The notes under the pieces were generated by a model that was given only the letters and a program-made list of their open reading frames with translations, was not told the DNA's origin and did no database searches. From contig JAKZVY010000169.1 in assembly GCA_047515825.1 (NCBI GenBank), positions 1 to 32,004 on the forward strand: DNA of 32,004 bases, given 5' to 3'. The position numbers and the translations under genes are program-made. Shown one piece after another: positions 10,307 to 31,826 of the stretch. Origin of the DNA: Dehalococcoidia bacterium. GTDB taxonomy: Bacteria > Chloroflexota > Dehalococcoidia > Lucifugimonadales > UBA1123. How positions within the stretch are numbered: the first letter of the stretch is position 1; each line of letters starts with the position of its first letter.

Positions 10307-11065
10307 CTACCACGTCAGCGCCCCGCCGTTGACGTGGATTGTCTGACCAGTGATGTAGTCCGCGGCGTCCGATGCCAGAAACACGACCGTCTTGCCGATC
10401 TCCTCAGGCAGTCCGAGGCGTCCAGCGGGAATTCCCTCAACTTCTCCGGCGGTCGGGGCTGCCTGGCGTCCAACTCGGGTGGTGTCGAACGCGCCGGGGA
10501 CGATGTGGTTGACGCGGATTCCGTGCGGGGCAAGCTCGACGGCCAGCGCGCGAGTCAGGCCCAGCGCGCCCATCTTCCCGGCGCAGACGTGTGCCCACTC
10601 CGCCCTGCCCTTGAAGGCGTTGAGGCCGGACACGTTGATGATCCTGCCCCAGCCGCGCTCGATCATCTTAGGGACGACGGCCCGACAGGTGTAGAACGGG
10701 CCGTCCATGTTGACGGCGTTGATTTCGCGCCAGTCAGTAGATGTCATCTCAATGAACGGCTTCGAGGCGCGCATTCCGGCGTTGTTGACGAGAATGTCCA
10801 CCCGTCCGAACTCGGAGATCGCGGACCCCACCATGCCAAACGCTCTGTGCTCGTTTCCGACGTCAGCGATCCTGACGATGGCGCGTACTCCGAACTCTCG
10901 CGCCTCGGCCGCGACCGTCTCGGCTTCGTCGCGGTTGGAGCGGGCGTTCACCACCACATCCGCGCCGTGCTTGGCGAGCTCCAGAACGGTGGCGCGTCCG
11001 ATGTTACGGCCGGAGCCGGTCACGAGGGCGACTTTGCCTTGCAGACTACCTTGTTCCATCGTCAC
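10307..11065 (-). CDS. SDR family oxidoreductase (FabG-like fold, atypical active site)
   Basis: TGSGRNIGRA cofactor motif, NNAG, INVSG, the pattern of ..K....GLTRALAVELAPHGIRVN.IVPG, and a C-terminal ITGQTIHVNGG. No Tyr lies between catalytic Ser146 and Lys164 (see findings). Confidence 0.85.
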   Translation of the reverse strand: MTMEQGSLQGKVALVTGSGRNIGRATVLELAKHGADVVVNARSNRDEAETVAAEAREFGVRAIVRIADVGNEHRAFGMVGSAISEFGRVDILVNNAGMRASKPFIEMTSTDWREINAVNMDGPFYTCRAVVPKMIERGWGRIINVSGLNAFKGRAEWAHVCAGKMGALGLTRALAVELAPHGIRVNHIVPGAFDTTRVGRQAAPTAGEVEGIPAGRLGLPEEIGKTVVFLASDAADYITGQTIHVNGGALTW

Positions 11066-28785: not shown

Positions 28786-29582
28786 AACGCATCGCCGCCG
28801 CTGCGTCACTCGTCCTTGTGCTGATGCTTCTCTCTTACCCGTCAGAAGCCTCGGCGAACGAGCCTTTCGACCTCGACGCCTTCACGGCGGCGAACCTGCT
28901 CTACGAAGACGGCAGCTACCAGGAAGCGGCGATGAGCTATGAGCACCTGGTTGGGCTGGGCTACGATGATTCCACCCTCTACTACAACCTCGCCAACTCC
29001 TATTACCGCACCGGCGACTTTGGACGTGCCGTGATCAACTACCTCAGGGCCGAGCGTCTCGCGCCATTCGACGCGGACATCCGCGCCAACCTGGAGCTGG
29101 CGCGGTCGCAGCGCGAAGACAAGGGCCACAGCAGCGAACCGGTCCCGGCGCTCGCGCAGATTGCCGAGCTCGTCCCGTGGGTCTCGACCAACCAAGCCGT
29201 CATGTCGGCGCTTGCGCTCTGGCTTGCGCTCGGGGCTATCGTCTACGCCTACTTCCGAATCAGACATGGCAGATGGGGAATCTGGCTGGCCCGCGCGGGG
29301 GTTATCGCGGCACTTGGTCTACTGACCTCCGTCGCGCTTGCTTCGGGAGGCTATGCCCAGCAGTCCCATTGGGAGCAGGTCGCGGTCGTGACGGCGGTGT
29401 CCACCGATGTGCGCGCTGGCCCCGGACACCAGTATCCAGGTCAGTTCAGCGTCGGCGCTGGAAACGAGACGAACCTGATCGACACTCGCGGCGGATGGCA
29501 CAAAATCGGCATCCCCAGGACTGGCATCGAGGGCTGGATACCCGCCCACGACGCCGAAATCGTCTGGCCGCCGGGAGACTGA
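28782..29582 (+). CDS. batE: TPR plus SH3 domain protein (BatE-like)
   Basis: Signal peptide, TPR units (YYNLANSYYRTGDFGRAVINYLRAERLAP), TM helices, and a C-terminal SH3-like GWHKIGIPRTGIEGWIPAHDAEIV. GTGA overlap with batD. Confidence 0.8.
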   Translation: MKRIAAAASLVLVLMLLSYPSEASANEPFDLDAFTAANLLYEDGSYQEAAMSYEHLVGLGYDDSTLYYNLANSYYRTGDFGRAVINYLRAERLAPFDADIRANLELARSQREDKGHSSEPVPALAQIAELVPWVSTNQAVMSALALWLALGAIVYAYFRIRHGRWGIWLARAGVIAALGLLTSVALASGGYAQQSHWEQVAVVTAVSTDVRAGPGHQYPGQFSVGAGNETNLIDTRGGWHKIGIPRTGIEGWIPAHDAEIVWPPGD

Positions 29583-29584
29583 AC

Positions 29585-29652
29585 CGTGGGCGGAAATTCA
29601 CAGGGGCAGCGGGGTACGCAACCTTACGCCGCCAGCGCGTACTGAGAACACC
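29585..29652 (+). repeat. ~67-nt direct repeat, copy A
   Basis: CGTGGGCGGAAATTCACAGGGGCAGCGGGGTACGCAACCTTACGCC...TGAGAACACC aligns by eye at roughly 80% identity with 30312-30378. It starts 3 nt after the batE stop. Confidence 0.7.
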
Positions 29653-29666
29653 TCTTGATAATAGAC

Positions 29667-29696
29667 TTGAACCCCAATCCAACCCCATGCTATCCT
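29667..29696 (+). promoter_or_regulatory. candidate promoter facing module 1 (TTGAAC-18 nt-TGcTATCCT)
   Basis: -35 TTGAAC at 29667-29672, an 18-nt spacer ending in TGC, and -10 TATCCT at 29691-29696. No ORF follows. Module 1 begins ~30 nt downstream. Confidence 0.3.
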
Positions 29697-29727
29697 ATTG
29701 CCCAGAACCCATGTCCGCGCCACATCG

Positions 29728-29838
29728 GGAACGGGGGCAGATAGTGCAGCAACGGTGCAGAAAGTGCACTAACCGCCCCAAAGCTGGACCGCCCTTCCCT
29801 TAGCTTTGGAACGGGGGCAGACAGTGCAGATAGTGCAG
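29728..29838 (+). repeat. module 1: AGTGCAG-type direct repeats x3, 8-bp-stem hairpin, AGTGCAG x2
   Basis: Repeat words at 29743, 29754, 29763, 29823 and 29832. Stem CCAAAGCT 29778-29785 / AGCTTTGG 29802-29809 with a 16-nt loop. A 22-mer, GGAACGGGGGCAGA[T/C]AGTGCAG, occurs at 29728 and 29808. Confidence 0.75.
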
Positions 29839-30019
29839 GAAAACTTAAAAATCTTTTTGAAGGGCTCCGCCCCAAGAACAACCTCACCCCGTGCTCGGAT
29901 GCGGGACCCGGCACAGTCCACTCTGACTATTCCCAACAACTATTCACCACCAACATCCCGTATCTTTGGGTCTTTCGCGCAACACATGAAGCCATGTTCC
30001 TGAACCATAACGTCACAGA

Positions 30020-30139
30020 CAGTGCCATTTCGGCAGAGGTCAGTGACATTTCAAGAAGAATCAGTGACATTTCGCCTCGCCCCGCTAAAGCTGGACCGAC
30101 CGACATACAGCTTTAGACCAGTGACAAAAGTGACATTTC
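30020..30139 (+). repeat. module 2: CAGTGACATTTC-type direct repeats x3 (21-bp phasing), 8-bp-stem hairpin, AGTGACA x2
   Basis: 12-mers at 30020, 30041 and 30062. Stem CTAAAGCT 30085-30092 / AGCTTTAG 30109-30116 with a 16-nt loop starting GGACCG, as in module 1. AGTGACA at 30120 and 30129. Confidence 0.75.
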
Positions 30140-30257
30140 AAACAAAAACTTTTCCCACTATGCCAGAGTGCCTTTCCCACATCACCAGTAACCGATCTCG
30201 CCGACTCTCCATCACCCTGTGGGGCATCCTCTACACGTGCATGGCTACCCCTCGGTC

Positions 30258-30324
30258 ATTCCCGCGAAAGCATGTCCCGTACTCCGATACGGGGGCTTGC
30301 CCTCGTGGAAACGTGGGCGGGAAT
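30258..30324. repeat. nested REP-like palindrome (ATTCCCGC ... GCGGGAAT enclosing CCCGTA-N6-TACGGG)
   Basis: Outer arms at 30258-30265 / 30317-30324 and an inner hairpin at 30276-30281 / 30288-30293. The flanks gtcattcccgcgaaagc ... gcgggaatcc match the widespread palindromic element that yields spurious 'AFAGMT' peptides. The right arm is part of repeat copy B. Confidence 0.5.
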
Positions 30325-30378
30325 CCACAGGGGTAGCGAAGTACGCAACCTTACGCTGCTGCGTGTGTTGAGAACACC
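30312..30378 (+). repeat. ~67-nt direct repeat, copy B
   Basis: CGTGGGCGGGAATCCACAGGGGTAGCGAAGTACGCAACCTTACGCT...TGAGAACACC is the partner of 29585-29652. Confidence 0.7.
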
Positions 30379-30524
30379 GACCGAAATCCACCACTGATGT
30401 CCGTAGAGGCGCTTCGTGAAGCGCCCCCACCCGCCAACGCTGCAATGCCATCGTAATCTGGGATCGACCCCTTTGACCCTTTCTTGGACGCCATGTGCGC
30501 GCTAGAATTAGCGACCAGTGTTTC

Positions 30525-31826
30525 ATGGCTGTTACTTCACACTTCAGACCCCGCCACGCCCGCCTACCGACGACCTTCGAGGCATTCCGCAACCGCGGTT
30601 TCAGTCTTCTGTGGCCCGCGAACTTCTTCGCGTACGTCTCCCGCTCGATGCAGATGACCCTCCTGATCTGGCTGGTGCTCGACCTTACTAGCTCGCCGTT
30701 CAGGGTGGCTCTGGTCGGTTTCTTCGGGATGGCGCCGTTGCTGCTGTTCGGCGCAGTGGGGGGTGTGCTGGTCGATCGCGTAGACCGTCGTCGACTTCTC
30801 ATAGCGATGCAGTTGCTCAACCTGACTGCCGGAGTCGCGATGGTCACTCTGCTGCTGACCGAGATGGTGCAGTACTGGCACGCCTACCTAGTCGTGCTCG
30901 CCAGCGGACTCGGATGGGCATTCGACATGCCATCAAGACGCTCCATAGTCCTCGACCTGATCGGCAGAGCGAAAGTAACCAATGCCATGGCCTTGGACTC
31001 GATGGGGATGCACGCGAGCAGGATGGCCGGACCCGCGCTGGCGGGCGGATTCATCGCCGCGGTCGGCGTGACCGGCGGGTACTACGCCATAATCGCGCTC
31101 TACTCGCTCTCAATCGCGTTTCTGGCTCCACTCAGGCTGCCGGCCCGAGTGTCGCAAGTGGCTTCTATGAGCATCGCCAGGAATCTGGCCGATGGCTTCG
31201 CATACGTGCGCACTGATCGCATCATCCTGACTACGGTGATTATCACGGTGTTGATGAACCTGCTGCTGTTCCCGTACATGCAGATGGTACCCGTCATAGC
31301 GCGTGACACGCTCGGCATCGGACCCGGACTCATGGGCATTCTTATGGGCGCGGACGGCCTCGGCGCGATCATCGGCTCGGTATCCATCGCGTCGGCGCGC
31401 CAGATCAAGTACCACGGGCGAGTCTATCTGGCAGGATCGCTAATTGCCCTGACAATGGTGCTCGTCTTCGCGGCGTCCAGGTGGTTCGCCTTGTCGCTTC
31501 CAGTGCTGGTACTGCTCGGACTCGGTGCCGCCGGTTTCGCAACGATGCAGTCCACGATAGTGGTTCTCGCGGCGAGAGAGGAGATGCGTGGACGCACGCT
31601 CGGAGTGATTTCACTCGCGATTGGAGCCGGTCCTATCGGCGCTCTGATGATAGGAGCGGTCGCCGAGGCGACATCTCCGGCGACCGCGGTCACCATCTTC
31701 GCGAGCCTCGGACTGATCACGGTCGGTACGGTTGGATGGCTAATGGCCGAGATCCGCGGCCCGGTGGGTCAGCCATCTGAGCGTGTCCAGGTGGAGTCCC
31801 CGATACCCGTCGTTCAGAGGACATAG
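30525..31826 (+). CDS. MFS transporter (MFS_3 / EntS-like)
   Basis: About 12 predicted hydrophobic helices. N-terminal FRNRGFSLLWPANFF....S..M......W and VDRVDRRRLL loop motifs are typical of this MFS subfamily. ATG at 30525 is preferred because a TAGAAT box (30503-30508) overlaps the GTG at 30495. Confidence 0.85.
   Translation: MAVTSHFRPRHARLPTTFEAFRNRGFSLLWPANFFAYVSRSMQMTLLIWLVLDLTSSPFRVALVGFFGMAPLLLFGAVGGVLVDRVDRRRLLIAMQLLNLTAGVAMVTLLLTEMVQYWHAYLVVLASGLGWAFDMPSRRSIVLDLIGRAKVTNAMALDSMGMHASRMAGPALAGGFIAAVGVTGGYYAIIALYSLSIAFLAPLRLPARVSQVASMSIARNLADGFAYVRTDRIILTTVIITVLMNLLLFPYMQMVPVIARDTLGIGPGLMGILMGADGLGAIIGSVSIASARQIKYHGRVYLAGSLIALTMVLVFAASRWFALSLPVLVLLGLGAAGFATMQSTIVVLAAREEMRGRTLGVISLAIGAGPIGALMIGAVAEATSPATAVTIFASLGLITVGTVGWLMAEIRGPVGQPSERVQVESPIPVVQRT

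Follow-up and report, generated by a model that had tools for sequence, protein, structure and literature searches.

The gap between batE and a major facilitator superfamily (MFS) gene in a Dehalococcoidia contig (JAKZVY010000169.1, positions 1-32,004; hereafter the window, 32,004 nt long) carries two repeat-hairpin-repeat modules, M1 and M2, which the initial annotation had described without assigning them to a known class. The best reading of the sequence is that both are rep-less orphan copies of the cis site of a one-gene cassette of SAR202-type Dehalococcoidia. By analogy with characterized systems, the module is probably a Rep-binding, origin-type element of a helicase-initiator cassette of the P4 and Staphylococcus aureus pathogenicity island (SaPI) type, and the repeat-hairpin-repeat oddity becomes assignable as the cis site of such an initiator. 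Our confidence that M1 and M2 are still active is lower. Among the classes proposed initially (attP region, iteron origin, ParR-type centromere, paired small RNAs), the iteron origin gained support because the module lies directly downstream of a gene for a superfamily 3 (SF3) helicase-initiator in every full-length locus read; the other three were not borne out.

Module architecture, family and the rep gene

All features of the window reported here lie on the plus strand. M1 opens with three words, the putative iterons GGGGCAG (29734), AGTGCAG (29743) and GGTGCAG (29754; together 29734-29760), which were read directly from the sequence. They are followed by an inverted word, GTGCAC/TGCACT, the complement of the direct word, which was placed at 29763-29770 by alignment with the family. 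The central inverted repeat, CCAAAGCT (29778-29785) and AGCTTTGG (29802-29809), encloses the 16-nt loop GGACCGCCCTTCCCTT, which starts with GGACCG. Further downstream stand GGGGCAG (29814), AGTGCAG (29823) and AGTGCAG (29832; together 29814-29838) and an A/T-rich tract (29840-29858), the counterpart of TATTTCAAAAAACTTTTT in the family. Counting GGGGCAG at 29734 and 29814, M1 has three words on each side like the family. The AGTGCAC at 29763 had been listed as a third direct word; it is present but aligns with the family's inverted word.

M2 is preceded by the leader motif GAAGCCATGT (29988-29997). Its upstream words, AGTGCCATTTC at 30021 and AGTGACATTTC at 30042 and 30063 (together 30021-30073), share the form AGTG[C/A]CATTTC and an exact 21-nt spacing. 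That these 11-mers are nearly identical and their spacers unrelated points to conserved sites rather than a recent tandem duplication. The inverted repeat CTAAAGCT (30085-30092) and AGCTTTAG (30109-30116) again encloses a 16-nt loop, GGACCGACCGACATAC, starting with GGACCG, and is followed by AGTGACA at 30120, AGTGACATTTC at 30129 (together 30120-30139) and the A/T-rich tract TTTCAAACAAAAACTTTT (30136-30153). Direct reading thus reproduced the words, stems, loops and 21-nt phasing reported for the two modules. The surrounding gap indeed holds no credible open reading frame (ORF), and its mechanical ORFs had no Pfam match. No tRNA or tmRNA gene was found in the window, which makes a tRNA-linked att site unlikely.

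A scan for the hairpin pattern over one genome per species returned 37 stretches. Eighteen of them, all with the architecture seen in the window, lie in a single complete chromosome, the metagenome-assembled Dehalococcoidia genome OY761144.1 (3.4 Mb); the other 19 were chance matches in coding sequence of unrelated bacteria, including two other Chloroflexota contigs. Two more copies, found via synteny and via the gene described below, bring this chromosome to at least 20 modules, and the window holds M1 and M2 as its only family members. OY761144.1 belongs to a relative of the window organism, likewise of SAR202 type, with an MFS protein 86% identical. The 18 copies are distributed along the entire chromosome between unrelated genes and occupy both strands (12 on plus, 6 on minus). 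Clustering of the genes around the 18 copies revealed no conserved neighbour except ORFs running through the repeat itself, which led to the recognition of rep remnants. In metagenome contigs of the Joint Genome Institute (JGI), the pattern with a loop of N9-12 gave 110 stretches; none had flanking words, all look like chance matches, and no further copies of similar architecture were obtained. Within the collections searched, the hairpin-type module was recovered from this lineage and its relatives only. The similarity of M1 to M2 is limited to the hairpin and the A/T tract, and M1 is about 73% identical to several OY761144.1 modules, its word mix being closest to that of L161. Instead of the local paralogous pair for which they had been taken, the two are distant members of a dispersed family.

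The family has a fixed layout. Three tandem 9-nt units ending in the word (the last unit has 11 nt) are followed by a short A/T-ish spacer and the inverted word; the centre is a hairpin of CCC-AAAGCT, GGACCG with ten pyrimidine-rich nucleotides, and AGCTTT-G; three more units of the same word then lead to TATTTCAAAAAACTTTTTCC and, about 25 nt further on, to TAAACTTGATAC-N5-GACTCAAC. The words start at fixed distances from the hairpin, namely at -56, -47 and -36 upstream and at +4/5, +13/14 and +22/23 downstream. Words vary among copies (GGTGCAG, GCGGCAG, GTGGCAG, AGGGCAG/AGTGCAG, GGGGCCC, AGTGACATTTC), while within one copy the same word stands on both sides of the hairpin. The inverted word, present at -14/-16 in nine of 16 copies, tracks the direct word (CTGCACC, CTGCCGC, CTGCCAC, TGCCCCC); the remaining words are all in direct orientation. 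Every module comes with an A/T tract.

These data leave practically no room for the explanation that the modules arose by chance or by neutral slippage of repeats around a fortuitous hairpin. Slippage does occur, as the number of 9-nt units is polymorphic between strains. The shared 28-nt hairpin pattern AAAGCTGGACCG-N10-AGCTTT, however, occurs exactly twice in the 32-kb window, and 100 shuffles did not produce it once. Only 6 of 1000 dinucleotide shuffles of the gap contained a perfect 8-bp hairpin flanked on either side by two or more copies of one 7-mer, against two such structures observed; the shuffle control suggested earlier thus came out in favour of a real architecture. The same applies to the comparison with relatives, in which genomes with about 80% identity keep a module in the same intergenic place. 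The chance explanation is refuted by this family evidence, including the constant geometry of more than 20 copies in a relative.

Upstream of several copies runs an ORF whose end lies 24 nt ahead of the hairpin. The longest remnant (291 amino acids) matched Pfam DUF5906 and PHROG 864, 'DNA primase' (3.5e-56), and its full-length relatives are proteins of 431-477 amino acids with D5_N and DUF5906 domains, i.e. SF3 helicases, here called Rep. Rep matched NCBIfam TIGR01613, 'phage/plasmid primase, P4 family' (1.7e-46), and its phage and plasmid homologues, 25-39% identical, are annotated as P4-family primases. The only sequence match in the Protein Data Bank was PriRep5 of SaPI5 (7OLA/7OM0, E 1.3e-16); the alignment with 7OLA reaches residue 741 of the 797-residue chain, near its C-terminal end. 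This alignment and weak Pfam matches (Pox_D5, RFX) support a winged helix in Rep, which an AlphaFold model based on a 34-sequence alignment was too poor to confirm (mean predicted local distance difference test score 41.8).

Seven full-length loci were read, representing five distinct genes (L155, L156, L157/L158, L160 and L161) on four chromosomes or contigs. In seven of seven the module starts at or overlaps the rep stop codon, and 5-10 words of 7-9 nt extend from the stop codon onward. A more distant sixth gene, L159, is followed by words, an inverted word and an A/T tract but not by the AAAGCT hairpin. Across the loci compared, Rep identities were 100%, 92%, 78%, 70%, 59% and 55%; the AAAGCT...AGCTTT inverted repeat is kept down to 59% (L161) and absent at 55% (L159). 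OY761144.1, with its at least 20 modules, has only two intact rep genes among the proteins listed, and several other genomes have two or three Rep paralogues each. The neighbours of the five full-length genes are unrelated housekeeping, restriction-modification or insertion sequence (IS) genes, and no integrase, capsid, repressor or partition gene is conserved beside them. A centromere of the ParR/parC type was rejected, as the precomputed Pfam tables contain no Par gene next to any cassette.

A sigma-70-like promoter, TTGACA-N17/18-TATCAT, TATAAT or TATCCT, precedes nearly every copy. In the window the promoter-like site TTGAAC-18 nt-TATCCT (29667-29696), of the family's 'type B', points toward M1 and lies 62 nt before it. 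Although below the threshold of a promoter scan, it proved homologous to the family promoter, with counterparts (TTGACA..CCCCATGCTATCCT) upstream of the modules in L005, L036, L027, L151 and L020; judged by this homology, the site noted earlier would be the promoter of the rep gene in the family sense. The leader motif GAACCCATGT (29705-29714), 8 nt past the -10 box, reads AAGAACyCATGTAC in L005, L036 and L027. At M2 the leader motif is kept and the promoter is degenerate, whereas relatives have an intact promoter at the same position. The distance from promoter to module amounts to 1384-1474 nt with a complete gene, to 442-452, 325-327, 262, 220-221 or 153 nt in internal deletions, and to 62-167 nt in gutted units devoid of a coding remnant, M1 standing at the lower end with 62 nt. 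In the internally deleted units the first codons (MLDPEIKSLLSEFDK...) run directly into those for the C-terminal region of Rep. Promoter and module, the two cis parts that the plasmid pRN1 also needs, are kept across this deletion series, in which M1 and M2 appear, from their sequence, to be two fully gutted units of promoter plus module.

Word specificity and the probable role of the module

The words and the C-terminus of Rep diverge jointly. Two Rep proteins of OY761144.1, P0121 (L155) and P0122 (L160), share 96.1% identity over residues 1-380 and 71.7% over residues 381-440, and their modules carry GCGGCAG and AGGGCAG, respectively. Compared with Rep of L155, identities over the same two segments were 85% and 61% for L156, 72% and 53% for L157, 63% and 45% for L161, and 57% and 38% for L159; every compared pair shows excess divergence at the C-terminus. 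The pattern is as expected of co-evolving initiator/iteron pairs, a correlative argument that is partly confounded by physical linkage. In the syntenic loci L155 and L156 the flanking proteins are mostly 94-96% identical (84% for one truncated ORF), Rep is only 81% identical, and the words are GCGGCAG and GGTGCAG. This contrast reflects either a very fast evolution of Rep and its site or an in-situ replacement by paralogues. The last 8-12 codons of Rep are themselves the upstream words (L155 10300-10359, L156 10290-10347, L157 10380-10434), with protein tails reading ...SAAGAADARQA, ...GADGADRVQN and ...AGAQGAQRGQE, so that a change of iterons also alters the tail of the protein.

A complete cassette consists of a sigma-70-type promoter, an initiator-helicase of 431-477 amino acids and the module, which begins at the stop codon. 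On the favoured interpretation as a Rep-binding origin, drawn by analogy to P4 alpha and SaPI Rep, the 7-11 nt words would serve as iterons, each bound by the winged helix of one Rep subunit. The iterons, in two sets of about three, and the one inverted iteron could position helicase hexamers on either side of the inverted repeat, the duplex would open at the inverted repeat and the neighbouring A/T tracts, and the sequence of the word would decide to which Rep variant a module answers. In the window, rep would have been wholly deleted from two units that came to lie head to tail in a rearranged intergenic region. M1 and M2 would then be either inert relics or sites that bind, and thereby titrate or exploit, a matching Rep supplied from another place in the genome.

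Several observations weigh against this interpretation. Whereas SaPI origins have an AT-rich centre, the module is built around a G+C-rich inverted repeat with an A/T-ish spacer of 15-18 nt, which M1 lacks, and has its longest A/T tract beyond the second set of words. Most words point in one direction, the single inverted word being limited to the nine of 16 copies mentioned above. In L153 and in L160 (intact rep) the hairpin is replaced. A tblastn search with Rep found neither gene nor remnant in the window or in L001, a contig 98% identical to the window, in agreement with the earlier statement that the window holds no Rep, Int or Par gene; an integrase is likewise lacking there. IMG/VR contained no relatives of Rep, and no extrachromosomal or viral relative was found. 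M1 of L001 has one extra 9-nt unit, i.e. three downstream AGTGCAG units instead of two (L001 11040-11075 vs window 29823-29838), and such a difference between strains 98% identical suggests relaxed constraint. About 20 active origins would be hazardous to a chromosome, so many or all copies may be silent. Finally, L020 of OY761144.1 (3010-4880) has the same promoter type and module, with a 523-amino-acid ORF in place of rep. This ORF shows DNA-methyltransferase and HNH-like motifs by eye and clusters with two ORFs near the modules of L007 and L033. In L156, genes called as N6_N4_Mtase and MvaI_BcnI adjoin rep.

An action of the module as RNA, transcribed from the cassette promoter either as the 3' untranslated region of rep or, in gutted units, as a short RNA, is improbable; such an RNA could act as a terminator, in copy control, or in processing or stability. 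The conserved promoter points into every module, and the plus strand can form the central hairpin, extended by G-U pairs, as well as an outer helix in which the inverted word pairs with the first of the downstream words. Folded as single-stranded DNA, M2 was better than its shuffles (z = -3.7), whereas M1 was no better (z = -1.0). The change at the second base pair of the stem had been interpreted as compensatory, but across 16 distinct copies this is the only variable pair (CG in 4, UG in 4, UA in 3, unpaired in 5). As the other seven of the eight pairs are invariant, there is no real covariation support. Pairing of the stem is plausible, although the same pattern would be expected of a cruciform or of a palindromic protein-binding site. 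The stem is not followed by a run of U, and a terminator scan found none at the modules. An Rfam scan of 29000-31000, recommended with the original description, gave no match above noise (only SNORD41, E 3.6), and together with the invariant stems and the terminator scan it led us to reject a structured small RNA of an Rfam type. Moreover, the direct repeats of the two sides cannot pair with each other, and the match between words and Rep C-terminal divergence would be left unexplained.

A slightly smaller probability is given to the module as a recombination site of the attP, attC or res type for excision or insertion of the cassette, with the words as arm or accessory sites and the inverted repeat as crossover core. 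The cassette does occur at about 20 sites without an obvious transposase, the layout is like that of arm sites, core and arm sites, and promoter and module can enclose another cargo, as L020 shows. However, the surroundings of the five distinct full-length genes have no conserved integrase or recombinase, and word changes track the Rep C-terminus. Half-sites of tyrosine-recombinase cores are typically 6-8 nt apart. Those of the module are 16 nt apart, and since an integrase is present neither in the window nor beside any cassette, an attP of the tyrosine-integrase class was rejected. By eye, no terminal inverted repeats of the cassette were noticed, and no target-site duplications or transposase were identified around the copies. 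A right-end motif, (GAG)TCAAyWAAC-TTGATAC-N5-GACTCAAC, found in L155 at 10481-10515 and at the equivalent place in 22 other loci, occurs once per unit, does not recur at left ends and has no significant match in the window. It contains three GWSTCAA-like half-sites, its middle part resembling the -35 region of the cassette promoter (TTGACAC), and may be a candidate protein-binding site; the 7-nt TTGAYAC common to the motif and the -35 box is too short to interpret.

About equally doubtful is a Rep-bound site that is not an origin and instead has an autoregulatory, copy-control (handcuffing or titration) or partition-like function. All evidence for the association with Rep applies equally to such a site, and the G+C-rich centre makes a poor unwinding element. 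In iteron plasmids, titration of the initiator by orphan iteron clusters is known. On the other side, the site downstream of rep is an origin or is required in cis for replication in SaPI, P4 and pRN1, an A/T tract goes with every module, and no second candidate origin was seen in the cassette of about 2 kb.

The origin-type interpretation leads to a more tentative idea. The cassettes are unusual in being both solo, i.e. devoid of a conserved integrase nearby, and highly multiplied, and the cassette itself seems to be the repeated unit. Promoter, SF3 helicase-initiator and iteron/hairpin site, about 1.9-2.2 kb in all, could possibly form an undescribed selfish one-gene 'rep-ori cassette' that multiplies in SAR202/Dehalococcoidia chromosomes without a dedicated recombinase, which we consider an option well short of even. 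It would spread by a replication-coupled or host-recombination mechanism. Derivatives that resemble miniature inverted-repeat transposable elements (MITEs) and retain the origin only, such as M1 and M2, the rapid switching of specificity, and the 81% identity of Rep beside neighbours of 94-96% are in line with this idea. Alternatively, the host may have domesticated the cassettes, e.g. for local over-replication or as Rep decoys. We found no earlier description of a stand-alone rep-ori cassette present about 20 times in the 3.4-Mb chromosome of an uncultured marine lineage. If active, the modules would be built-in extra origins or Rep sinks in a bacterial chromosome, and promoter, rep and module together offer a candidate minimal replicon for a phylum in which genetic tools are lacking.

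The batE-MFS interval and its flanking repeats

The gene-free gap that had appeared odd is real and reflects a rearrangement of the locus. Relatives show three states of the interval, none of which can be aligned base for base across the module ends. In L149 and L153/L154 an operon of three ATP-binding cassette (ABC) transporter genes is followed by a spacer of about 1 kb with promoter and module; the window and L001 have two modules and no operon; L162 has about 85 nt only. The interval between batE and the MFS gene (29583-30524 in the window) is thus a rearrangement hot spot. With respect to the MFS gene, M2 occupies the position at which L149 and L153 have modules with the words GCGGCAG and AGGGCAG, respectively. 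Either an orthologous site changed its words in concert, or the units were replaced.

The block of promoter, M1 and M2 is bracketed by a 72-nt direct repeat, a feature absent from the initial annotation. Its first copy starts at the batE stop codon (29581-29652), the second lies at 30308-30378, and the two are spaced by 727 nt, with an identity of 83-87% that varies with the method of comparison. Neither the window nor the related loci examined contained a further copy, and on this ground an att site or a dispersed repeat was rejected. Folding of the copies was not significantly better than that of shuffles (z = -0.9 and -1.9). The repeat could be the junction product of the rearrangement that removed the ABC operon.

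A small hairpin also occurs twice, as CCCGTGCTCGGATGCGGG at 29888-29905 and as CCCGTACTCCGATACGGG at 30277-30294. The second copy has a counterpart at the same position in L153/L154 (9624-9651) and matches a separate dispersed repeat often located downstream of modules, as in L010, L012 and L033 of OY761144.1; the first is tied to this repeat only by its likeness to the second, judged by eye. Another hairpin, GTAGAGGCGCTTC/GAAGCGCCCCCAC (30403-30430), stands upstream of the MFS gene and is conserved in L149, L151 and L153, with one position changed on both sides (CTTC/GAAG vs CATC/GATG). Possibly it serves the MFS locus as a regulatory or terminator-like element.

Comparison with known systems

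Origins of the RepA/TrfA/pi type have iterons of 17-22 bp, DnaA boxes and an AT-rich unwinding element. An iteron plasmid origin of this type was rejected for the modules, whose words measure 7-11 nt; the gap contains no DnaA box even with one mismatch allowed. The family resembles MITEs in its many short copies that hold only the cis parts of an autonomous unit and in its nested deletion series. It differs from them in that no terminal inverted repeats, target-site duplications or transposase were identified here.

The core origin of simian virus 40 (SV40) and other polyomaviruses is a site at which an SF3 initiator acts on short repeated words flanked by an imperfect palindrome and an A/T tract of about 17 bp. 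The words of the module are likewise flanked by an inverted repeat and by TTTCAAAAAACTTTTT. In SV40, however, the words are four pentamers arranged as inverted pairs, and there is no sequence relationship.

The satellite P4, whose alpha protein belongs with Rep to the family TIGR01613, also has, adjacent to the alpha gene, a second cis site with repeats (crr). Alpha binds repeats at its origin via a winged helix (PMC4234260). It differs from the protein described here by a TOPRIM primase domain, as Rep matches no primase-domain family in Pfam or NCBIfam, and P4 itself is a satellite of about 11 kb with an integrase.

SaPI Rep is a self-loading SF3 helicase and initiator whose C-terminal winged helix recognizes iterons of 5-6 nt; six to twelve of these lie immediately downstream of the rep ORF, halved around a central AT-rich region, with at least two per side in opposite directions (PMC9371898). 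The cassette shares with SaPIs and other phage-inducible chromosomal islands (PICIs) an SF3 initiator, which aligns with PriRep5, short iterons right after rep, their arrangement in two sets around a centre and their element specificity. In contrast to these islands it is solo, with no integrase, repressor or packaging gene and no island of about 15 kb, it reaches about 20 copies per genome along with deletion derivatives, and its host belongs to the Chloroflexota. The conserved centre is a G+C-rich inverted repeat instead of an AT-rich region, and the words have 7-11 nt at a 9-nt spacing. A PICI or phage satellite island as such was rejected in view of the missing conserved integrase beside the five rep genes and the lack of IMG/VR relatives.

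The minimal replicon of pRN1 comprises a promoter, rep, which encodes an SF3 helicase with a winged helix, and a downstream stem-loop that has to be intact, and the authors suggested a stem-loop 3' of the encoding gene as the place where proteins of this kind assemble (PMC4234260). The retention of promoter and module in the deletion series resembles this organization around ORF904. The pRN1 site, however, is a 100-nt stem-loop without iterons, the protein has a prim-pol domain, and an archaeal plasmid stands against a chromosomal multi-copy element. The module described here combines iterons on both sides with a conserved inverted repeat and an A/T tract beside it.

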